From: Alphaproteobacteria bacterium
GTDB taxonomy: Bacteria; Pseudomonadota; Alphaproteobacteria; CAAHEQ01; UBA3637
Length of the DNA stretch: 64,000 nt
Reading direction: 5' to 3'
Assembly (NCBI GenBank): GCA_045532865.1
Contig: JAZSGT010000028.1
Coordinates: forward strand, 18,507 to 82,506
Shown: piece by piece, positions 439 through 41,767 of the stretch
Layout: every line of letters begins with the position of its first letter
Numbering within the stretch: position 1 is the stretch's first letter
Program-made: the position numbers and the translations under genes
Notes under the pieces: generated by a model
The model's database searches: none
The model's input: only the letters and a program-made list of their open reading frames with translations
What the model was told of the DNA's origin: nothing

Positions 439-1101
439 ATGACACCTGTGGAAAACAAAGCTCTTCATGTGGCTGAAGAATTACATGGAAAAGTAAAATT
501 TGGTAAAAGTTCAACAATGATTGAACAATTAAGAAGAACAAGAGAATTGTTGGCAGAGAATACGGAACTTAAAGGTGATGAAAGGGATATTCTTTTGGCG
601 GCTTCTTGGTTAAATAAATGTCATGAAGCAAAAAGAATTGATACTGAAAATGGTAAAACGCCTTGGACTATTGAGGATGTTGAAAAGCATTTTGGTCAAA
701 AAGTTGCAAAAGTTGTTGGAGAGTTGATGACTGAACCAGACGAACCTGAACACTTGACTAAAATGCAACAATGGACAATTAAAGCAGAGTGGGCTCAAAC
801 ATTGTCACAACCTTCTCAACAAATTTTATTGGCTGAAAAAATTATTAATTATATGCAAACAAGGGATGACCCAACACCAAAATGGTCTGTTGCAAGACAT
901 AAGGAGTATTTAGATTCCCGTGATTTGATGGTTGAAGCGATTAAAAGTGCGAGTCCAAGGTTGTATCAATTATCTCGTGATGTAAAAAAAGAAGCACTTG
1001 TTAGTCTTGAGAAGTTAGCACAAAGACAAGCTCAAGAACAAATTGTAACAACTCAAAGTGTAAAGCATCAAAAGTCTGAAGTTGCTCGTGATGGGCGATA
1101 A
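439..1101 (+). CDS. HD-domain-like protein (RelA/SpoT hydrolase-like fold, possibly degenerate)
   Basis: The N-terminal pattern ALHVAEELHG...H...LLAASWL resembles the HD_4 architecture of the paralog at 40290. The canonical HD dipeptide is not obvious. A strong RBS precedes the start. Confidence 0.45.
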   Translation: MTPVENKALHVAEELHGKVKFGKSSTMIEQLRRTRELLAENTELKGDERDILLAASWLNKCHEAKRIDTENGKTPWTIEDVEKHFGQKVAKVVGELMTEPDEPEHLTKMQQWTIKAEWAQTLSQPSQQILLAEKIINYMQTRDDPTPKWSVARHKEYLDSRDLMVEAIKSASPRLYQLSRDVKKEALVSLEKLAQRQAQEQIVTTQSVKHQKSEVARDGR

Positions 1102-1123
1102 TTTGAATATATTTAAATTAAAC

Positions 1124-1160
1124 AAAAAAGAGTGCTGAAATTTTCAGCACTCTTTTTTGT
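1124..1160 (+). terminator. rho-independent terminator
   Basis: Inverted repeat agagtgctgaaa/tttcagcactct followed by a T-run. Confidence 0.7.
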
Positions 1161-1539
1161 AATAAAAAATAGTTAGTTGGTTTTCTTATAGTAAAAAAGG
1201 CGGAATTTTTCGCTATTAAGGCTTGTATTAAAGAGTTGTTTTGCTTGCAACCATTTGCTTGGAATCAAAATTCCAGCTCATGGGTTATAGCCTGAACCGT
1301 CACGACCTCTTTGTTGGTCATAAGCTCAATGCTACACCCCCTCTTTTTTAAACACAATAAAAAAAGCACCCAAATGGATGCTCTTTCATTGGCCAAAGGG
1401 GGTGGGATTTATTCGCATAAATGCGCTCACCCTTCGGGCCGCCTGCCGGCGTTGCCTTCATTTCGGCCGAACCAGTGGTTCAACCCCGCCCCACGTATAA
1501 ATCAAAAAGGCCAACCTTTCGGCTGACCTTTTTCCTTTA

Positions 1540-1617
1540 TGGTTGCGGGGGTGGGATTTGAACCTCACGACCTCCAGGTTATGAGCCTGGCAAGCTACCG
1601 GACTGCTCTACCCCGCG
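1540..1617 (-). tRNA. tRNA-Met (anticodon CAT), initiator-like with a C1/A72 mismatch and encoded CCA
   Basis: The reverse complement reads CGCGGGGTAGAGCAGTCCGGTAGCTTGCCAGGCTCATAACCTGGAGGTCGTGAGGTTCAAATCCCACCCCCGCAACCA. The anticodon loop is CTCATAA. The 3' acceptor strand CCCCGCA gives C1 opposite A72. The T-loop is TTCAAAT. One extra nucleotide (A) sits in the 5' T-stem strand. Confidence 0.85.
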
Positions 1618-1630
1618 ATAGAATAAGGTA

Positions 1631-1659
1631 AATATACATAATTTTAATATAATTGTCAA
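1631..1659 (-). promoter_or_regulatory. sigma70-like promoter for tRNA-Met
   Basis: On the minus strand: ttgaca, 17 nt, tatatt, then about 13 nt to the tRNA 5' end. Confidence 0.55.
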
Positions 1660-1792
1660 TGCTTTTTTGAAAAAAAATTCATTTTTTTAAGAAATACAAA
1701 AAAAATGAAAGGGATATACTTTTTTCGCTTGCTTTTTTGGAGTTGTCAGTCCATATTAAATCTGTATTTTATTTTTTTTAGAGGAGTTTCAT

Positions 1793-2236
1793 ATGAAAAA
1801 ACAAATTGCTACAATTGTTATGTCATCTGCTCTTTTGCTTTCAGGGTGTGCCAGTTGGTGTGATGAATGTGCAGATGGTTCATGCGAAGTAACATCTAAA
1901 GTTGTTCTTCCTGCTAATGCATTATTCGCTTTTGATTCTGCTGAATTGTCAACTAAAGACATTAATGCTTTGGCCCCTGTTGTTGAAAGAATGACAGAAG
2001 ATAAATCAGAAAAAGTTACTATCAAAGGTTACACAGATAGTACAGGTCCTGCTGCATACAATCTTAAATTGTCAGAACGCCGTGCAGAATCTGTTGCATC
2101 ATACCTTGAATCAAAAGGTGTTTGTGCAACAAGAATTACAACAGAAGGTTATGGCGAAACAAATCCTGTTGCTTCAAATGAAACAGCAGCGGGTCGTGCA
2201 CAAAACCGTCGTGCAGAAGTTATTACATACAAATAA
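1793..2236 (+). CDS. pal: OmpA-family lipoprotein (Pal-like peptidoglycan-associated lipoprotein)
   Basis: Lipobox LLLSGC; OmpA C-terminal motifs (TDSTGPAAYNLKLSERRAESVASYL, NRRAEV); RBS agaggag. Confidence 0.8.
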   Translation: MKKQIATIVMSSALLLSGCASWCDECADGSCEVTSKVVLPANALFAFDSAELSTKDINALAPVVERMTEDKSEKVTIKGYTDSTGPAAYNLKLSERRAESVASYLESKGVCATRITTEGYGETNPVASNETAAGRAQNRRAEVITYK

Positions 2237-2251
2237 TTGTTTGAATCTGTT

Positions 2252-2283
2252 AAAAAAAGCGAGGTCTCCTCGCTTTTTTTTTA
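2252..2283 (+). terminator. rho-independent terminator
   Basis: aagcgagg tctc ctcgctt followed by T9. Confidence 0.75.
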
Positions 2284-2357
2284 TTTCTAAAAAAAAATAA
2301 AAGTATTTATTTTTTTATTTCTCTATGTTATAATAAAATTATATAAGGAGACTAGAA

Positions 2358-3362
2358 ATGAAAAAGATACTTTTATTATGTACTTTTTTGTGTTGTGCCA
2401 CGCCAGTAAAAGCTGATTTTGCTGATGCTGAAAATTATTTTACACAACAGGATTTTTCTCGTGCATTTTCAGAGTTTTTACCCCTTGCAAATAATGGGGA
2501 CTTTCGCTCGCAATATTATGTGGGCTATTTGTATTTAAATGGTTTAGGTGTTTCTCAAGATATAAGAGAAGCTATTCGTTATTTGAAAGATTCTGCCGAT
2601 CAAAATTATGATATGGCACAGGCTTTACTTGCTTTTTTATATGAAGAAGGGCATGCAGTACCACAAGATAAAGAAAAGGCATTGGAGCTTTATAAGTTGG
2701 CTGCTGCTCAAAGTAATGCTTCGGCAAATTTGAATCTAGGGGTGATGTATTATAATGGTTCAAATGTTGAAAAAAATCATAGTGTTGCATTGGAGTATTT
2801 TAAAAAAGTTCCATTAGAGGAAAAGCCAATTGTCGCTCGTTATATTGGGGATATCTATTTAAATAACGTTGATTTAAAAGATTATAGAAGTGCGTTGTAT
2901 TATTATTCAGTTGCTGCTGCTACGGGTGACTTAGATGCTTTTTTTGCATTAGGTGAAATTCATCGTAAGGGTTTAGGTGTTCCAAAAAGTGTAACAAAGG
3001 CACTTCCTTATTACAAATATGCTGCATCAAGAGGTTATGCGCCTGCTCAGTATATGCTTGGAATTGTTTTTGCAAATGGTGATGGTGTTACCAAAGACGT
3101 TGGTAAAGCTTATGCGTGGATTTCATTTGCAGCTGAGCAAAAGTTTATTAATGCGGAAAAAGCAATTGAACAACTTTCAGCCAACATGTCAATTTCTGAT
3201 TTTGACCAAGCACGGCGCCAGATTGCATTGATACAAGATAATGAAATGGGAAAAATGGCAATGCCTGTTATTTCTAAAGTTTCATTAAAGTCGGACGAAA
3301 AACAAACTCATAATAAAGCAGGAAATAGACGGCGTAGAGGGGTTCGTTCTAGGAGGAAATAA
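2358..3362 (+). CDS. Sel1-repeat (TPR-like) protein with signal peptide
   Basis: Repeated Sel1 motifs (AxxxYxxAAxxGxxxAQxxLGxxY...G); N-terminal signal peptide; basic C-terminal tail. Confidence 0.8.
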   Translation: MKKILLLCTFLCCATPVKADFADAENYFTQQDFSRAFSEFLPLANNGDFRSQYYVGYLYLNGLGVSQDIREAIRYLKDSADQNYDMAQALLAFLYEEGHAVPQDKEKALELYKLAAAQSNASANLNLGVMYYNGSNVEKNHSVALEYFKKVPLEEKPIVARYIGDIYLNNVDLKDYRSALYYYSVAAATGDLDAFFALGEIHRKGLGVPKSVTKALPYYKYAASRGYAPAQYMLGIVFANGDGVTKDVGKAYAWISFAAEQKFINAEKAIEQLSANMSISDFDQARRQIALIQDNEMGKMAMPVISKVSLKSDEKQTHNKAGNRRRRGVRSRRK

Positions 3363-3676
3363 TGTTAACCAATTTTTTTAAACACTTATTCTCATTTAAT
3401 ATTGCAAGTTTTGCTGGAATTATTGTGGGGTGGATGTTGTTTATGACATATACAGGTTCGATGCCTTTGCCTCCACTGCTTTTTTCTCGTGAGCTTTATG
3501 TTATGGGGTTGCTGGGTGTATCTATTTTTCACTTCTTTTTATGGGTGTTGTTAGATAAAGCGAGTTTTTATAATATTAAAAACAGAATGAAAGATTTAGT
3601 AGTAGATTATATGGTCTTAATGGCTGTAACAACTTGTTTTTGTTCTATGCTTTTTTTAATTAATACATTCTACTAA
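3362..3676 (+). CDS. small membrane protein, hypothetical
   Basis: ATG overlaps the upstream stop (ataATGtta); three predicted TM helices. Confidence 0.35.
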   Translation: MLTNFFKHLFSFNIASFAGIIVGWMLFMTYTGSMPLPPLLFSRELYVMGLLGVSIFHFFLWVLLDKASFYNIKNRMKDLVVDYMVLMAVTTCFCSMLFLINTFY

Positions 3677-4464
3677 TCTTTAACATTTTTATATGCTTGG
3701 GTTAGATCTAAATCATTTAGATCGCCATTGATGAAACGCAACACCTTTTTTTTCAAAATAGTTCGTTCAGGTGTATTTTCATCTAAATCTAAACTCATAA
3801 GATACGAATCGTATTTTTGAAATAAACCATAATCTTTAATTGTTACAGAAAGAGGGGTAGCGCTTGAATAAAAAGAATAGAAAAGCCCCTCGTTTTGAGT
3901 TTGAGTTGGATTAATTCTTGTTTTAAAATCAATATCGATTAATTGAGGATTGATAATTTGGCCATAAGTAATCAAACTGTCTCCTTTTTGTTTTATAACT
4001 AATGAGATATTTAGTTTTAATTCATCAATGTTTGATAGTGCCAAACTTTGCAAAGGTTTTTGAAAGGAATCAATAATTGGTTGGTAATTTTCTAGTTCTT
4101 CAATAATATGAATATTGTGATTTTTTCGTAAAGAATTTAAAACGTTTACATGGGTATTTATCATGCGAATATGAATAAAATCACTTTGCTGTTTTACAAC
4201 CATCTTTTCAATTAAATGATCAACGGCAATGTTTGGAAAAGTTACTTTATAGAAAATAATCCCATCACCAAAAAAAGGTTTTGAAACATTTTTATATTTC
4301 ATATCCACAGGGTTGATCTGATATGTTTTAAACAAGTTTGTAATACTTTTTTTTGTGTGAATATGTTGATATGAAATGAATGTGATACACAAAAAAGAAA
4401 TAGAAAATAAACAAGAATAAAATAAATTTGTAATGATAGCACTGGGATGTATTGAGATAGTCAT
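3673..4464 (-). CDS. hypothetical protein with N-terminal TM anchor
   Basis: Long ORF with no competing ORF; hydrophobic N-terminus. Confidence 0.45.
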   Translation of the reverse strand: MTISIHPSAIITNLFYSCLFSISFLCITFISYQHIHTKKSITNLFKTYQINPVDMKYKNVSKPFFGDGIIFYKVTFPNIAVDHLIEKMVVKQQSDFIHIRMINTHVNVLNSLRKNHNIHIIEELENYQPIIDSFQKPLQSLALSNIDELKLNISLVIKQKGDSLITYGQIINPQLIDIDFKTRINPTQTQNEGLFYSFYSSATPLSVTIKDYGLFQKYDSYLMSLDLDENTPERTILKKKVLRFINGDLNDLDLTQAYKNVKD

Positions 4465-34555: not shown

Positions 34556-34631
34556 TGATTTAATTTGTTAAAAAAGAGTTTTTATGGTAAAATAAAAATA
34601 TGTGATACAAAAGAAAATAGGGGAATGGTCT

Positions 34632-36203
34632 ATGGCTGATAATAAAATGCTTTCACTTCAAGAAAAAAGAAAATTAGCAAGTTGTTTTGATTTAAGCTTA
34701 TTATCTCAAGATGATAGAGAATTTTTTTATTCCATATTATATAATCATTTAGATGAATTCCCTATTTTAACCATGCTTGCAAAAGATGTGATGAATGGTT
34801 CAAATAAAAAAATATTTATTAATGTGAAAAAGTTAGATTCTAACATAAATGGGTATCAAGGCAATGGTGAAATTTGTTTTTCAACGCAATTATGGCATTC
34901 TTGTAAACAAAAAAAAGATACAAAAAGAGCGGCTTCTACATTTTGGCATGAGATTATGCATGCAATTCAGCAAGATAAGTTGACTTATTCCTATTCAAAA
35001 AGAGGATATATGGTGTATCGTCAATTTATTGAAGCTGAAGCAATGAGTTATTCTAATTTGATGGTGCCTAGGTGCGAATTTGAAGATGAACTTTATAAAT
35101 CAATTTTAAAAGATTCACCATCTAAGTTTGAGGCTCAAAAAAGATATATTGCTGTTTCTACAAGATTACGTTTAAATGCTGATAGAGAACTGGCAAAATT
35201 TGATGCTCAAAATATTATGGGAAAATATTTTTCAGAATCAAAATGGGAAGATTCTGAAAAATATACAATCAAAGGTTGGCGTGATTTTTATTATAAATAT
35301 CACCAAGATTATGCTAAAAATATATGGGAAACAAAAGGAAGCTATGATAACAAATTAATTTCAGAAAGTGAAAAATATTTTGAAGACAGATATGGTATTA
35401 AAATTTCTGCAAAAGCAGCTATTTCTGAAGATGTTATTAATAATTATGGCTTATCAACTGGAATATTAAATACACGTATTATAAAGTTAAATGATGCAGA
35501 AGTTTTTGAAATTTCTAAATGGCGAGAACTGTCAGATAGACATGGTAATAAAGCATATACATTGGATATGCCAAATATGGATCCATCTTATATTAATGAT
35601 GTGTATGGGCATATTCTTGCAAATGGAATTCATGTTAAAAAGACGTATGCAATCCATAGAGATGGGTTTTCATCAAGATTACTTCAGATTGTAAATACAC
35701 CTGAAAATATTAAAAAGTTTATTGAAAAATGTGAGACATCAAAACAACCAAAAGTAAGAGAAGATATTTGGCCTAAACCAGATGAAAGAAAATGTGGCTA
35801 TGGTAAGCAAATTTTTAATAATGCTATTATTGCTATTGATGTTGAAAATCCTCCCATTTTTCAAGTTGGAAAATACAAGAATATTAGTGTTGATTTTAAT
35901 GAGTTCCTTTCCCCTAAAAATAAAAAGTTTTTAAAAGAAGGTGGTTTGATTTTTGTTGGTAAGCATCCAGATTCGTTAGCGATTGATCTTCCAAAAGAGG
36001 TGATGGATAAGGCTTGTAAATATTGTGCTTTTAAAGAAAGTGATCCAACTGTATCTCGATTGCAAGGATACTTGTTTGTTGATAGGGAAGGGTTTCTTTG
36101 TTACAAAGAGTGCTCAACAAATGGTTCGTTTGTTCAACGGGGTAATCCAAATAGATTAAACCAATGTAAAAATCGAGAGCAATATTCTATGTCAACAAGA
36201 TAA
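34632..36203 (+). CDS. hypothetical protein with HExxH (WHEIMHAIQ) zincin-like motif
   Basis: 523-aa ORF from the ATG at 34632 (GTG at 34602 also possible). HEIMH followed about 30 aa later by EAEA, gluzincin-like. No signal peptide. Confidence 0.5.
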   Translation: MADNKMLSLQEKRKLASCFDLSLLSQDDREFFYSILYNHLDEFPILTMLAKDVMNGSNKKIFINVKKLDSNINGYQGNGEICFSTQLWHSCKQKKDTKRAASTFWHEIMHAIQQDKLTYSYSKRGYMVYRQFIEAEAMSYSNLMVPRCEFEDELYKSILKDSPSKFEAQKRYIAVSTRLRLNADRELAKFDAQNIMGKYFSESKWEDSEKYTIKGWRDFYYKYHQDYAKNIWETKGSYDNKLISESEKYFEDRYGIKISAKAAISEDVINNYGLSTGILNTRIIKLNDAEVFEISKWRELSDRHGNKAYTLDMPNMDPSYINDVYGHILANGIHVKKTYAIHRDGFSSRLLQIVNTPENIKKFIEKCETSKQPKVREDIWPKPDERKCGYGKQIFNNAIIAIDVENPPIFQVGKYKNISVDFNEFLSPKNKKFLKEGGLIFVGKHPDSLAIDLPKEVMDKACKYCAFKESDPTVSRLQGYLFVDREGFLCYKECSTNGSFVQRGNPNRLNQCKNREQYSMSTR

Positions 36204-37825: not shown

Positions 37826-38101
37826 GTGATGAAGATTGATTGTGGCAAAAGATATGCAATGCAGGCATTGATTAAAACGCACAAAGTTTTTGTTCAAAAA
37901 GGTATTAAATCAGAGGGTGATTATTCTTGTGTCAAAGTTGATTTTTCAAATGTAACTTCTGAAACGGCAAAAGCATTTAAACGTTGTTATAGAAAAAAAT
38001 TGTTGAAAGAATTTGTAAAAAAAAGTTGCCATGACCAGCAGTTATTACGGCTTGTATTTCACCATTTGCATTGCTTTGGGTTGCAGGATGTGTGGATTTA
38101 G
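37826..38101 (+). CDS. hypothetical small protein (doubtful)
   Basis: 91-aa ORF directly after metG; no similarity recognised. Confidence 0.25.
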   Translation: MMKIDCGKRYAMQALIKTHKVFVQKGIKSEGDYSCVKVDFSNVTSETAKAFKRCYRKKLLKEFVKKSCHDQQLLRLVFHHLHCFGLQDVWI

Positions 38102-38316: not shown

Positions 38317-38346
38317 CGTATGCATATAAAAATAAAGGAGTTGCTT

Positions 38347-38655
38347 ATGTTTTTATCAAGATTAAAGTCTTTTTTTGTCCCCGATACAACAGATTTATTG
38401 CTTAAGAATGAAAATATTTATGTTGATAAAACATTCTTTAATCGGTGTTTAAAAGGGAAATATCTTTTGAATATGAAATATAGAAAAGTAAAAGTTGGTT
38501 TATTAAAACGCCAAATTGATAAAAAGATTTATGATTTAACAGAAAATGACTTGTATAAGTATCTTCAAAATCGTGAAAAAGAGGGAAAAATGAGTTCTTC
38601 TTTTGAACAGTTGATTGAAAATATTGAAAAAATGGATTCGATACAAAAAGTGTAA
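38347..38655 (+). CDS. hypothetical protein; possibly the 5' part of a frameshifted gene that continues to about 38820
   Basis: ATG at 38347 with an aaggag RBS. The ORF stops at 38655, but the +2 frame stays open to 38820 (YRSNLIKDGQHRAIYLLWKYGPDYEVDTIHIRVKK...). That is followed immediately by the terminator at 38823. Confidence 0.35.
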   Translation: MFLSRLKSFFVPDTTDLLLKNENIYVDKTFFNRCLKGKYLLNMKYRKVKVGLLKRQIDKKIYDLTENDLYKYLQNREKEGKMSSSFEQLIENIEKMDSIQKV

Positions 38656-38822
38656 TTATTTGTAAATATCGCTCAAATCTAATTAAAGATGGTCAACACA
38701 GAGCAATTTATTTGTTGTGGAAATATGGTCCAGATTATGAGGTTGATACAATCCATATTCGTGTAAAGAAAAGTTTATTAAGATTTCAATTGTTTCCTTG
38801 GTTGAAAAAGAAATTTTAAAAA

Positions 38823-38845
38823 AGAGAGGGTTTCCTCTCTTTTTT
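38823..38845 (+). terminator. rho-independent terminator
   Basis: agagagg gttt cctctct followed by T5. Confidence 0.75.
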
Positions 38846-38846
38846 C

Positions 38847-38875
38847 TTGACTTAAATAACTAGTGATATTATTTT
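38847..38875 (+). promoter_or_regulatory. sigma70-like promoter driving the trp leader and trpB
   Basis: ttgact at 38847-52, 17-nt spacer, tatttt at 38870-75. The predicted transcription start lies next to the leader ATG, so the leader may be leaderless. Confidence 0.45.
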
Positions 38876-38882
38876 GCAACTT

Positions 38883-38951
38883 ATGAAGTATATAAAATTA
38901 TTTGATTTTTCTTGTGTTTTTAAAAGCGTATATGCATTTTGGTGGTGCTAA
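38883..38951 (+). CDS. trp leader peptide-like ORF (MKYIKLFDFSCVFKSVYAFWWC) with tandem Trp codons
   Basis: 22 codons ending ...ttt TGG TGG tgc TAA; the hairpin ggtgc-taac-gcacc overlaps the stop codon and is followed by a U-rich tract; sits 90 nt upstream of trpB. Confidence 0.45.
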   Translation: MKYIKLFDFSCVFKSVYAFWWC

Positions 38952-38968
38952 CGCACCTGTTTATATAT
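38944..38968 (+). promoter_or_regulatory. candidate attenuator hairpin (ggtgcTAAcgcacc plus U-rich tract) overlapping the leader stop codon
   Basis: 5-bp GC-rich stem whose 5' arm is the second Trp codon and Cys codon; the loop contains the stop codon. Confidence 0.35.
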
Positions 38969-39041
38969 GATAGATTAACCATCTTAAAACGGTTCTTTAT
39001 TTAATAAAAAAATCAAACATTATGAATATAAAAAAGGAAAA

Positions 39042-40223
39042 ATGATGAAAAAATTTAACGGTTTTTTTGGCAGTTTTGGTGGTTCATATATATCAGAAAA
39101 ATTGCAAAAAGAAATGAATAAAATTGAAAATGTATATAATGAATTAACAACAAATTCTGAGTTTATTGAAAAATTAAAATATATTAGAAAAACATATCAA
39201 GGTCGCCCAACTCCAATTACATTTGCTGAAAATTTAAGTAATAAAATTGGTGGTGCAAAAATTTATTTAAAAAGAGAAGATTTAAACCATACCGGAGCTC
39301 ACAAATTGAACCATGCAATGGGAGAAGCTTTGCTCGCAAAATATATGGGGAAGAAAAAGTTGATCGCAGAAACAGGTGCTGGGCAACATGGTGTTGCAAT
39401 GGCAACAGCAGCAGCTTATTTGGGATTAGAATGTGAAATTTATATGGGTGAAGTGGATATTGAAAAACAAAAACCGAATGTGCTAAGGATGAAATTACTG
39501 GGTGCAAAAATTGTCCCTGTAACTCAAGGTCAAAAATCTTTGAAAGAGGCAGTTGATAGTGCTTTTGATGCTTATTTGAGTGATCTTGATAATTCACTTT
39601 ACTGCATTGGATCTGTTGTGGGACCACATCCATTTCCAATGATGGTGAGAGATTATCAAACAATCATTGGAGAAGAAGCTCGTGAGCAGATGGTAAGAGA
39701 TTTTGGATCACTTCCAAATGCAGTTGTTGCTTGTGTGGGTGGTGGTTCAAATGCTATTGGTATTTTTAGTGGTTTTGTGGATGAAAAATCTGTTGCTCTA
39801 TATGGGATTGAGCCTTTAGGAAAAGGTTCAAAAATAGGAGAGCATTCTGCTTCAATTAATTTTGGAAAAGAAGCGATTATGCAGGGGTTTAAATCTTTTG
39901 TGATTCAAGGGGTAGATGGTGAACCTGCGCCTGTTTATTCCATTGCGAGTGGTCTTGATTATCCAAGTGTTGGCCCAGAACATGCTTATTTGCACACAAT
40001 TGGACGAGCAAAATATGTTTTGATTGACGACATAGAATGTTTAGATGCTTTTTATGAACTATCTAAAACAGAAGGTATCATTCCTGCGCTTGAAAGTGCA
40101 CATGCTGTCGCTTATGCAATCAAACTTGCAAAAACGATGAGTTCAAATCAAAAGATATTAGTCAATTTGTCGGGCAGAGGTGATAAAGATTTGGATTTTA
40201 TTGCTGAGAAATATGGAATTTGA
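39042..40223 (+). CDS. trpB: tryptophan synthase beta chain (TrpB1-type), not adjacent to trpA
   Basis: [54 protein letters not shown] and [10 protein letters not shown] motifs; RBS aagga. Confidence 0.85.
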
Positions 40224-40289: not shown

Positions 40290-41108
40290 ATGTATCAACA
40301 ACTATCTGTTTTAGATATTCAAAAAAACAAAATATTGTGTGATGTGTGGAAGTTTGTTTCTTCAGTTCATGCAGGTCAAACACGAAAAGGGATTAATCAA
40401 ACAGGAATTTTGCCAAAACACACAGCGCATTTATTTCGTGTTATGGAAATCACAGCAAATGCATTGGGTAACCCTATGATGGTCTTAAAAAATAATGATT
40501 TACTACCACTTTTGAGTGCCGCTTTATTGCATGATACAATAGAAGATACGGTTGTTAATACGTCTGAAAAATTGGAGAGAGCATTAATGCCACTTGTGGG
40601 GTTTGATTGTTCAAAAAAAATAGCTGCTCTTGTTCAAGAACTTTCAAACCCTGCAGAGTGCTTTTTGGGAAAAACAAAAGAAGAAAAAGATAAAAACAAA
40701 AAGGAATGGCAAATCCAACATGCTCTTAAAATGTCCACTCCTGCTAAGTTGATTAAAATGGCAGATCAAATTGCAAATATAATAGATTCGGCAGATTTGG
40801 ATATGGCAGGGATTAAAAGTAATCCTAACGCATGGAGTGAGGAAAAAAAGATTTTTTATGTTGGTAAAGCATTGGCTGTTTGCAATGCGTGTTCAGATGG
40901 GATAGAAAAATCAACTCTTTTGCAAAAGAATATGTTTTTAAAGTTGAATAATTTTGCGTCTTTTGCTGCAGAGTATGCGTTATTTAAAATCAAAAATCCA
41001 CAATATGCACATTTGGATTTTTTTGAAGAGCTGAAATTAAAAAATAGAAGATGCTTTAAAAAACAACAGTTAATTGTTACTGATTATAAAGGAATAGAAA
41101 GAGTATAA
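40290..41108 (+). CDS. HD-domain protein of the RelA/SpoT hydrolase family (small alarmone hydrolase-like)
   Basis: VHAGQTRKG...H...LLHDTIEDT motifs of the (p)ppGpp hydrolase HD_4 domain; no synthetase domain. Confidence 0.7.
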   Translation: MYQQLSVLDIQKNKILCDVWKFVSSVHAGQTRKGINQTGILPKHTAHLFRVMEITANALGNPMMVLKNNDLLPLLSAALLHDTIEDTVVNTSEKLERALMPLVGFDCSKKIAALVQELSNPAECFLGKTKEEKDKNKKEWQIQHALKMSTPAKLIKMADQIANIIDSADLDMAGIKSNPNAWSEEKKIFYVGKALAVCNACSDGIEKSTLLQKNMFLKLNNFASFAAEYALFKIKNPQYAHLDFFEELKLKNRRCFKKQQLIVTDYKGIERV

Positions 41109-41255: not shown

Positions 41256-41332
41256 TGGTCGGGGCGACATGATTCGAACATGCGACACCTTGGTCCCAAA
41301 CCAAGTACTCTACCAGGCTGAGCTACGCCCCG
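41256..41332 (-). tRNA. tRNA-Pro (anticodon TGG), CCA encoded
   Basis: The reverse complement reads CGGGGCGTAGCTCAGCCTGGTAGAGTACTTGGTTTGGGACCAAGGTGTCGCATGTTCGAATCATGTCGCCCCGACCA. The anticodon loop is TTTGGGA. Confidence 0.9.
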
Positions 41333-41402: not shown

Positions 41403-41767
41403 AATGTCAGACAATCTATAAGCCGGGTTTTGTAATCGATAATCATTCGTCTGGGATAAACATTACTGTTTACCTCTAGCGACCTACCTCTTGAGAGCAG
41501 ATCAGAAACGCTCTTTTTACAAAGAAAATCTTTGGCTCTCTTCACTTGGTCTTGCTTCCGATAGGGCTTGCCGTGCCATTTTAATCGCTTAAAATGCGGT
41601 GAGCTCTTACCTCGCCGTTTCACCCTTACCAATTAAAAAATTGGCGGTTTGTTTTCTATGGCGCTATCCCGTGGGTCACCCCAGCTGGACGTTATCCAGT
41701 ATCGTGTTTCCGTGAAGCCCGGACTTTCCTCCAAAGTTGCCTTCAGCGATTATCCGATCGTCTGACG
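41403..41767 (-). ncRNA. rnpB: RNase P RNA (bacterial type A)
   Basis: The minus strand contains GGAGGAAAGTCCGGGCTTCACGGAAACACGATACTGGATAACGTCCAGCTGGGGTGACCCACGGGATAGCGCC...GGTAAGGGTGAAACGGCGAGGTAAGAGCTCACCGC...ACAAAACCCGGCTTATAGATTGTCTGAC. Both universally conserved P4 strands (AGGAAAGTCCGGGC and ACAAAACCCGGCTTA) are present. The 5' and 3' ends are complementary (P1). Confidence 0.85.

Follow-up and report, generated by a model that had tools for sequence, protein, structure and literature searches.

A candidate tryptophan attenuator with a Trp-Trp-Cys leader upstream of a stand-alone trpB gene in gut Alphaproteobacteria

Introduction

Attenuation by a translated leader peptide is the textbook mechanism for the regulation of tryptophan (Trp) biosynthesis genes, and the trp leader-peptide attenuators known to us precede either whole operons or trpE. 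In Sinorhizobium meliloti, trpL is found before trpE(G) only, and trpFBA has no such leader. The S. meliloti leader RNA, rnTrpL, is a leaderless transcript of 110 nt containing stem-loop (SL) 1, with its apical loop at about nt 40–47, the antiterminator SL2 and the terminator SL3 (PMC6614838). By our own arithmetic, a 14-codon open reading frame (ORF) that starts at nt 1 places the trpL stop codon at nt 43–45, in the SL1 loop. Actinobacterial ilvB leaders have regulatory codons that overlap a candidate terminator hairpin, itself succeeded by a U run, and their mode of regulation was stated to be unclear (Seliverstov et al. 2005, PMC1262725). Here, we analyzed a 64,000-nt stretch of DNA from an alphaproteobacterial genome (GenBank assembly GCA_045532865.1, contig JAZSGT010000028.1, positions 18,507 to 82,506 of the forward strand), which is referred to in its entirety as the window. 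In the window, a stand-alone trpB gene, encoding the tryptophan synthase beta subunit, is preceded by a short ORF that ends in two Trp codons and a Cys codon and runs into a small hairpin. An earlier note on this DNA, made from the letters alone, proposed that this leader is a minimal attenuator. We consider, with moderate confidence based on comparison of related leaders, that it is a cis-acting, ribosome-mediated tryptophan attenuator of the trpL type that serves the stand-alone trpB.

Results

Structure of the trpB leader

Direct reading of the window sequence at 38847–39042 gave, in this order and all on the forward (+) strand, a promoter, a leader ORF, a hairpin, a U-rich tract and trpB, as the earlier note had described at the same coordinates. 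The sigma-70-type promoter (38847–38875) consists of TTGACT (38847–38852), a 17-nt spacer and TATTTT (38870–38875). This −10 box ends 7 nt before the ATG (38883) of the trpL-like leader ORF (38883–38951), which comprises 22 codons and a stop codon, encodes MKYIKLFDFSCVFKSVYAFWWC and has no upstream Shine–Dalgarno (SD) sequence. The 3′ end of the ORF reads TGG TGG TGC TAA (38940–38951), and the tandem Trp codons (UGG UGG; codons 20 and 21, 38940–38945) are the presumed sensor. The final two bases of the second Trp codon, together with the Cys codon UGC, make up the 5′ arm (38944–38948) of the hairpin GGUGC-UAAC-GCACC (38944–38957), the 3′ arm of which lies at 38953–38957, and the leader stop codon UAA (38949–38951) is situated within the loop. 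The tail that starts at 38958 reads TGTTTATATAT, and the U/A-rich linker UGUUUAUAUAUGAU (38958–38971) on the 3′ side of the hairpin is a possible terminator tail or pause tract. The ATG of trpB (39042–40223) lies 90 nt past the leader stop codon and is preceded by an SD region, AAGGAA (39034–39039). The identity of trpB was established by TIGR00263 (552 bits versus a cut-off of 392), and PF00291 also matched.

Conservation of the leader ORF and hairpin

A TrpB scan with one genome per species returned 80 loci. The closest relatives among them, L001 (TrpB 77% identical) and L002 (73%; related loci are designated by L numbers), are labelled as alphaproteobacterial metagenome-assembled genomes (MAGs) from animal guts. 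In both of them, the exact 18-mer TGGTGGTGCTAACGCACC stands before trpB and closes 22-codon ORFs, MKQKEMNLLFLNFSTQYCLWWC and MKNFMIVHSNTFNFILAWRWWC, that end in WWC and a stop codon. No comparable leader was found at the other 78 genome loci (TrpB 64–69% identical; Clostridia, Spirochaetes, Helicobacter and others). Scanning metagenome contigs for the exact 18-mer gave 13 matches, two of which precede trpB and close ORFs of 22–23 codons; the remaining 11 were rejected as chance matches in unrelated, mostly high-GC DNA. A scan of viral contigs with a degenerate motif gave 66 matches, none of which lay beside trpB, and these were also regarded as chance matches. A protein search returned more than 100 TrpB relatives at 70–96% identity, and inspection of 12 contigs encoding TrpB homologues yielded 11 further distinct leaders. 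The comparisons below are thus based on 15 distinct related leaders, whose TrpB proteins are 71–95% identical to that of the window and all of which are from labelled Alphaproteobacteria MAGs or unlabelled metagenome contigs. As a separate observation, the exact 18-mer also occurs in two high-GC environmental contigs, L088 (2015–2032, − strand) and L089 (250–267, − strand), as part of a conserved sequence that is unrelated to trpB; a conserved ORF starting with MNIKRMRGRNHRP and MNMKRMRGRNHRP, respectively, lies about 60 nt farther downstream.

The conservation check suggested in the earlier note was carried out, and all relatives examined have the small ORF with its Trp codons in front of trpB. 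At each of these loci the 18-mer is present, either exactly or with changes confined to the loop, L101/L102 differing additionally in the first Trp codon; in the 64-kb window the 18-mer occurs once, versus 0.01 occurrences expected even with three mismatches allowed. The tandem Trp codons are kept in 14 of the 15 distinct leaders; the leaders end in W-W-C-stop with GGUGC-[stop+N]-GCACC, and L101/L102 have W-I-A-Y-W-C instead. The ten bases of the hairpin stem are identical in all relatives. The loop occurs as UAAC, UAAG, UAAU, UGAC, UGAU or UGUG, with UAA or UGA as the stop codon and C, G or U in the fourth position. Frame 0 of the leader ORF is free of stop codons in 16/16 loci, whereas the other two frames contain one to four stop codons in most of them. 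The ORF is 20–23 codons long in the relatives, with the exception of L111 (27 codons). Mean pairwise identity across lineages was 92% in the 18-nt core, as compared with 38% in the 57 nt before it and 41% in the 12 nt after it; the leader peptide is unconserved upstream of its end although its length is held. Extra Trp codons occur in four lineages, solely 2–4 codons before WW. As a whole, an ORF with regulatory codons (two for Trp in the window, two to three in the relatives) stands upstream of trpB in all 15 distinct leaders, and, judging from this recurrence, the leader element is not a chance occurrence. In all likelihood, the leader ORF acts as a Trp-codon sensor, since no other function would explain together why the frame is open and the length fixed, why the first UGG lies outside the stem, why extra Trp codons occur where they do and why the leader is linked to trpB.

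Taken by itself, the promoter match does not exceed chance, because a pattern scan detected five promoter-like sites in the surrounding 1 kb versus 6.8 expected. Most lineages, however, contain a TTGACA-like box, a 16–18-nt spacer and TAnnnT, followed by 6–7 nt to the leader ATG. A single match means little, and it is the fixed position within otherwise unconserved sequence that makes the promoter meaningful. No GGA or AGG motif was observed before the leader ATG in the relatives examined; trpB, by contrast, has a clear AAGGA. Since the −10 box ends 6–7 nt before the ATG and an SD sequence is missing, the leader mRNA is probably leaderless, with transcription predicted to start at or next to the AUG. 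The suggestion of the earlier note to this effect is thus reasonable.

Terminator character of the hairpin

The 5-bp hairpin has a calculated free energy of −6.8 kcal/mol and was the sole structure recovered by RNAalifold. The 170-nt leader as a whole was no more stable than shuffled sequences (z = 0.11). The pattern scan listed the promoter and the hairpin with its T tail independently, and terminator-like sites numbered two in 1 kb, as compared with 0.1 expected. The U-rich tract reported in that note was also evident across lineages, with a U content of 56% in the 12 nt that follow the stem versus 34% in the rest of the leader. The hairpin and tail satisfied a loose terminator-like rule (at least five T in eight) in 11/15 leaders. 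L097, L101, L106 and L111 keep the hairpin without a U-rich tail, and in many lineages the U run starts just 3–6 nt past the stem. As for utilization of Rho, the 5′ untranslated region showed only a mild excess of C over G (162:119), with 10–20% C.

The L111 leader has a distinct arrangement. Its loop stop codon is replaced by UGU, and the ORF continues for eight codons (MTEIKNAFERMISARQIWWCCGTAYFE, followed by a stop codon), ending one base before the downstream segment S1 described below. L111 has lost the U-rich tail of the hairpin, yet it keeps the 5-bp hairpin. The downstream segment S2 of L111 forms a textbook terminator, AAACCGG-CCUUA-UCGGUUU (7-bp stem) followed by U7, which is the sole clear terminator among the leaders. 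An extended S1 overlaps the end of the ORF and can act as an antiterminator of the S2 terminator. This arrangement shows that genuine termination is possible at the S2 position, and that something beyond termination alone accounts for the retention of the hairpin.

A candidate pseudoknot downstream of the hairpin

A MAFFT alignment lost the register of the sequences downstream of the hairpin, and a pseudoknot finder with shuffle controls was used instead. The finder required two stems, S1 and S2, of at least 3 bp each with at least two G–C pairs, and loops of 1–4 (L1), 0–1 (L2) and 3–8 nt (L3). It placed an H-type pseudoknot in 12/15 leaders, with post hoc p values of 0.003–0.03 each versus shuffles (Fisher combined 1e-13). 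An equivalent fold is found at the same place in 12–14 of the 15 leaders, with arms that differ yet are complementary. The pseudoknot lies 11–16 nt after the hairpin stem (21 nt in L178), and, in addition to the window, this position is occupied in L001, L085, L087, L094–L097, L100, L101, L103, L106, L111 and L178. In the window, the corresponding element (38972–38994) is a compact H-type pseudoknot or, alternatively, two hairpins with a common C-rich centre. Its S1 pairs AGAU (38972–38975) with AUCU (38981–38984), its S2 pairs AACC (38977–38980) with GGUU (38991–38994), and L1 and L3 are U (38976) and UAAAAC (38985–38990), respectively. The window pseudoknot fails the finder rule of two G–C pairs in S1. 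Compared with AGGU:ACCU in L094, the TrpB of which is 95% identical, the S1 of the window, AGAU:AUCU, is changed on both sides.

Across lineages, the S1 arms include AGGU:ACCU, GGA:UCC, GGGA:UCCC, GGC:GCC and GGUU:AACC, and the S2 arms include AACC:GGUU, GCCA:UGGC, CCC:GGG, AUCC:GGAU, AAUCC:GGAUU, GAC:GUC, GGC:GCC and AAACCG:CGGUUU; this covariation also fits two mutually exclusive hairpins with a shared C-rich centre. The pseudoknot loops vary between lineages, and only the A-richness of L3 is kept. Ordered G-, C- and G-rich islands, GG..CC(N)CC..GG, were observed in 9–11 of 14 leaders versus 0.05 expected in shuffles. In the window, a second U-rich tract, CUUUAUUU (38995–39002), lies directly 3′ of S2 and is followed by an AAUCA motif (39011–39015). 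A motif of the form A[AU]UC[AU], which was defined post hoc, occurs within 30 nt (2–16 nt) past the pseudoknot in 11/14 leaders, as compared with 3.9 expected from shuffles.

Discussion

A proposed mechanism

According to the mechanism that we favor, transcription would begin at or next to the leader AUG to yield a leaderless mRNA, and a ribosome would translate about 19 codons before reaching UGG UGG. If charged tRNA-Trp is scarce, the ribosome would stall on these codons and occupy the 5′ arm of the hairpin, leaving GGUGC unpaired and GCACC free. If tRNA-Trp is plentiful, the ribosome would reach the stop codon in the loop, cover both arms and depart, whereupon the hairpin would re-form. The hairpin would thus take the pausing and sequestering role that stem-loop 1 has in the trp attenuators of E. 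coli and S. meliloti, and the decision would be made downstream. When GCACC is sequestered or covered, the G–C–G islands would fold (S1 and S2, stacked) and, together with the U-rich tract, would cause the polymerase to stop or stall; when GCACC is free, it would compete for the first G island, the compound structure would remain incomplete and transcription would proceed into trpB. The alternating G-rich and C-rich segments permit 1:2, 2:3, 3:4, 4:5 and 1:4 pairings. A downstream read-out is favored because the sole Trp-dependent difference would be whether GCACC is exposed (stall at the first UGG) or covered and sequestered (ribosome at the stop codon). We propose this relay, with the hairpin as stem-loop 1 and the pseudoknot as the executor, only tentatively. 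Translation of the leader, stalling of the ribosome and the nature of the off-signal are what we infer from the sequence, and that trpB is turned on under Trp starvation is assumed from the role of the enzyme.

Several observations weigh against this proposal. The stem of the hairpin is invariant and shows no covariation, so substitutions offer no proof that its arms pair. Statistics for the pseudoknot are post hoc, the rules having been set after the pattern was seen, and the lineages are related to one another. The pseudoknot is absent from L002, and a U-rich run follows S2 in only 7/14 lineages; L097, L101 and L106 have no terminator-like site at all. In a nearest-neighbour energy calculation, which cannot score pseudoknots, the downstream folds did not exceed shuffles in stability (mean z −0.55 to −0.7). 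As to the postulated 2:3 pairing, the duplex of GCACC with the first G island averaged −3.9 kcal/mol within the same leader versus −3.4 kcal/mol across lineages (permutation p = 0.15); it is strong in L094, L095, L085, L087 and L103, and is only a CC:GG contact in four to five lineages. Finally, a ribosome stalled at the upstream Trp codon of L085 or L101 would be about 12 nt short of WW and would leave the hairpin free.

Alternative explanations

The earlier note envisaged the hairpin and its U-rich tail as the sole terminator of a minimal attenuator that has no antiterminator, in which a ribosome stalled on UGG UGG occludes the 5′ arm and thereby allows read-through. This scheme agrees with the terminator-like appearance of the hairpin and tail in the window and in most leaders, with the U content of the tail and with the recovery of the hairpin alone by RNAalifold. 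It also agrees with L111, where the tail has become coding and a strong terminator is found downstream, and with the actinobacterial ilvB leaders, where regulatory codons likewise overlap a terminator (PMC1262725). The S. meliloti stem-loop 1, which has the same layout, is nevertheless not the terminator (PMC6614838). The occlusion logic poses a further difficulty, in that footprints of the ribosome and RNA polymerase appear to leave it without a Trp-dependent step. Ribosome toeprints lie at about +15/16 from the P site, and in a collided expressome the P site and the RNA 3′ end are at least about 26 nt apart. With the polymerase 7–9 nt past the stem, a coupled ribosome would hold the first UGG in its A site and hide the 5′ arm with or without Trp-tRNA, and a lagging or uncoupled ribosome would be absent under both Trp conditions. 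The ribosome would gain access to the stop codon only once the polymerase had moved 15 nt or more beyond the stem, to where the pseudoknot begins. Such an attenuator could not tell starvation from sufficiency, because the position of the ribosome at the release point would be the same in both conditions. Moreover, the stem is short and weak, the U run starts some nucleotides past it in many lineages, four lineages hold the hairpin without the tail, and the pseudoknot or hairpin pair conserved 11–16 nt farther on in 12–14 of the 15 leaders is given no role. Thus, the label "minimal" does not describe this leader well, and we regard this scheme as unlikely. Less likely still is post-transcriptional attenuation in the style of ermC or the mycobacterial poly-Cys small ORFs (sORFs), in which the stalled ribosome would alter folding or shield the 5′ end from RNases and so raise trpB translation or the half-life of the mRNA. 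This mode needs no co-transcriptional timing and therefore avoids the kinetic problem. Any Trp codon among the last six codons would suffice, which fits the extra upstream Trp codons, and the C-rich leader segments GCACCU and CCACCU resemble an anti-SD sequence. There is also a precedent in Mycobacterium smegmatis, where the translation of a gene is controlled by a leaderless sORF that precedes it and has sensor codons at its 3′ end (bioRxiv 10.1101/834739). However, pairing of the tail with the trpB ribosome-binding site was no better within a leader than across lineages (permutation p = 0.26) or than with shuffled tails (mean z = 0.02), and sequestration of the SD sequence by the U-rich tail was rejected because the pairing is not specific. 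Being rich in G, the Trp codons are unable to pair with the SD sequence, which is unsequestered in most full-length minimum-energy folds, and a stall that frees GCACCU would, if anything, mask the SD sequence, which is the wrong direction.

Two further explanations place the constraint on DNA or on the peptide rather than on RNA. If GGTGC-N4-GCACC were a DNA palindrome, a dimeric regulator could bind it as a roadblock operator and the ORF would be secondary. Invariant half-sites around a variable 4-nt spacer, without covariation, are indeed the pattern of a protein-binding palindrome. Yet the palindrome has a single copy per locus, always in the trpB leader, both in the 64-kb window and in 23 related loci (160 kb in total). 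There is no sign of a regulon, and no conserved regulator gene was found beside the palindrome in the related loci. An operator would also fail to account for a frame that stays open, an ORF of fixed length, a first UGG that lies outside the palindrome, a stop codon placed in its spacer and a leaderless promoter; we find it barely credible. A role for the 22-residue, WWC-ending peptide itself, as a small hydrophobic protein, would be compatible with attenuation and seems only marginally less improbable. The invariance of the C-terminal WWC, including Cys, speaks for it, and the S. meliloti leader peptide peTrpL is reported to act in trans (PMC7298713). The remainder of the peptide, on the other hand, is unconserved, its 38% nucleotide identity being approximately that estimated for unrelated AT-rich sequence. 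Conservation also extends beyond the stop codon into the non-coding GCACC, which argues that the constraint is on the RNA.

A bolder possibility is that the pseudoknot does more than contribute passively to a terminator. It could represent a new kind of expression platform, either a pseudoknotted terminator or a pause element, or else a small aptamer responding to another signal, for instance indole or free tryptophan; relatedly, the invariant Cys codon could make the leader a dual Trp/Cys sensor. We consider these ideas very unlikely. With an aptamer, the indole-salvage enzyme would be gated both by charged tRNA-Trp, via the leader peptide, and by its substrate. As a side reaction, tryptophan synthase forms cysteine from serine and sulfide, and a dual Trp/Cys sensor could serve a TrpB that also makes cysteine in this way in the gut.

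Genomic context of trpB

The window has a G+C content of about 30% and contains ordinary housekeeping genes. In both the window and 15 related loci, trpB is an orphan, with trpA and the other trp genes absent beside it, and family searches of the window showed that the ORF after trpB (272 aa) is not trpA and found no other pathway genes nearby. Together, trpB and its leader occur in at least five unrelated neighborhoods: metG ... trpB ... RNase P-upp-rplM-rpsI; lon-hup-trpB; an aminoacyl-tRNA synthetase gene followed by trpB; a gene for a type IV secretion coupling protein and then trpB; and gpsA and trpB in divergent orientation. Since the leader accompanies trpB across these neighborhoods, it belongs to trpB and not to a neighbor.

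Other features of these loci are as follows. A strong two-way intrinsic terminator (38818–38845; 12-bp stem between an A run and a T run) adjoins the leader promoter and closes the upstream unit, and the leader hairpin is much weaker than the canonical terminators of the same genome. Around metG, three ORFs had no Pfam or NCBIfam match: 34602–36203 (533 aa), 37826–38101 (91 aa) and 38320–38655 (111 aa). There are two adjacent ATG codons at the start of trpB (39042 and 39045; window 39042–39047), and identical or near-identical database proteins have 392 aa, indicating that gene callers picked 39045. A 7-codon mini-ORF, MNIKKEK (39022–39045), whose TGA overlaps the trpB start ATGATG, is shared with L094, has a broken frame in L095 and is absent elsewhere; it is probably fortuitous. 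The 272-aa ORF downstream of trpB (40290–41108) matched no Pfam family, showed a faint RelA/SpoT-type match (E = 5e-4, 18 bits) and occurs only in the window and in its closest relative, L094. A tRNA-Pro(UGG) gene (41256–41332) and a class A RNase P RNA gene (41403–41765), both on the minus strand, lie between trpB and upp-rplM-rpsI, and the order trpB, RNase P, upp, rplM, rpsI is also found in L096 and L097. In the position that RNase P RNA and upp occupy in the window, L094 (6782–8460) encodes a MunI-type restriction enzyme, an MT-A70 methyltransferase and a helix–turn–helix regulator. In L103–L105, L107 and L108 (about 550–3771), trpB and its leader directly follow a gene for a TraG/VirD4-like type IV secretion coupling protein, which hints at a mobile-element neighborhood; this lineage is widespread, its TrpB protein being present on 175 contigs.

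Significance of the leader

If our reading is correct, leader-peptide attenuation extends to a stand-alone trpB in uncultured, low-GC gut Alphaproteobacteria. These organisms presumably live on indole made by their neighbors, and the leader would mark trpB, and hence indole salvage, as a regulated, Trp-limited function in them. The anatomy would be unusual, with a leaderless mRNA, a sensor codon placed in a never-varying 5-bp stem, a stop codon in the loop and a tiny pseudoknot thereafter. A compact system of about 120 nt bears on how much RNA an attenuator needs and on whether a pseudoknot can terminate or pause transcription. For annotation, the signature TGGTGGTGCT-RR-N-GCACC upstream of trpB may serve to recognize such leaders.

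Comparison with known systems

Searches against Rfam, at the gathering score for the window and 13 related loci and at E ≤ 10 for 38650–39100, returned no match to T-box (RF00230), Trp_leader (RF00513) or riboswitch families. An array of the TRAP type (9–11 (G/U)AG triplets spaced 2–3 nt apart) was not observed in 38952–39041, which contain a single UAG and no repeats. As regards small pseudoknot riboswitches such as preQ1-I, Rfam gave no match and the loop sequences vary between lineages. Pairing of the leader with an SD sequence, as in ermC and the poly-Cys leaders, was not detected, since duplexes between the tail and the ribosome-binding site were no better than controls.

The mycobacterial poly-Cys sORFs resemble the present element in being short, leaderless ORFs with sensor codons at their 3′ end, located about 90–100 nt before the regulated gene (bioRxiv 10.1101/834739); they differ in that their sensor codons pair with the SD sequence of the next gene for translational control, whereas no specific pairing with the trpB ribosome-binding site was found here. 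The actinobacterial ilvB leaders share the short ORF and the overlap of regulatory codons with a candidate terminator hairpin, but concern other amino acids, another phylum and a different GC content, and no conserved downstream pseudoknot has been described for them. Escherichia coli trpL (RF00513) likewise has a short ORF with tandem UGG codons that sense charged tRNA-Trp, a first hairpin followed by a pause-prone tract, and a stop codon placed so that the terminating ribosome covers the second segment. In contrast to E. coli trpL, the present element is predicted to be leaderless, has its regulatory codons within a hairpin arm and would control a single orphan trpB; a 2:3 antiterminator is not demonstrable, and no match to the Rfam family was obtained even at E ≤ 10.

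The closest likeness is to trpL of S. meliloti and other Rhizobiales, in which the transcript also starts at the leader AUG, as predicted here, and consecutive Trp codons stand near the C-terminus of the leader peptide. In S. meliloti trpL, too, the Trp codons are in the 5′ arm and the stop codon is at the apical loop of the first stem-loop, and the regulatory RNA would be of similar size (about 110–120 nt) if termination falls after the pseudoknot here. The two differ in several respects. The S. meliloti peptide has 14 residues with WWW, whereas the peptides described here have 20–23 residues and end in WWC, and the S. meliloti leader precedes trpE(G) rather than an orphan trpB. SL2 and SL3 of S. 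meliloti are GC-rich and form a plain hairpin terminator, in the place of which the present leaders have a pseudoknot or hairpin pair of 20–24 nt; stem-loop 1 is just 5 bp and invariant here, and no sequence similarity was seen between the two systems. On the basis of this comparison, the trpB leader would work like a trpL attenuator, its layout is closest to that of the leaderless alphaproteobacterial trpL, and it would represent a new principle only if the pseudoknot were a sensor or a new type of terminator.

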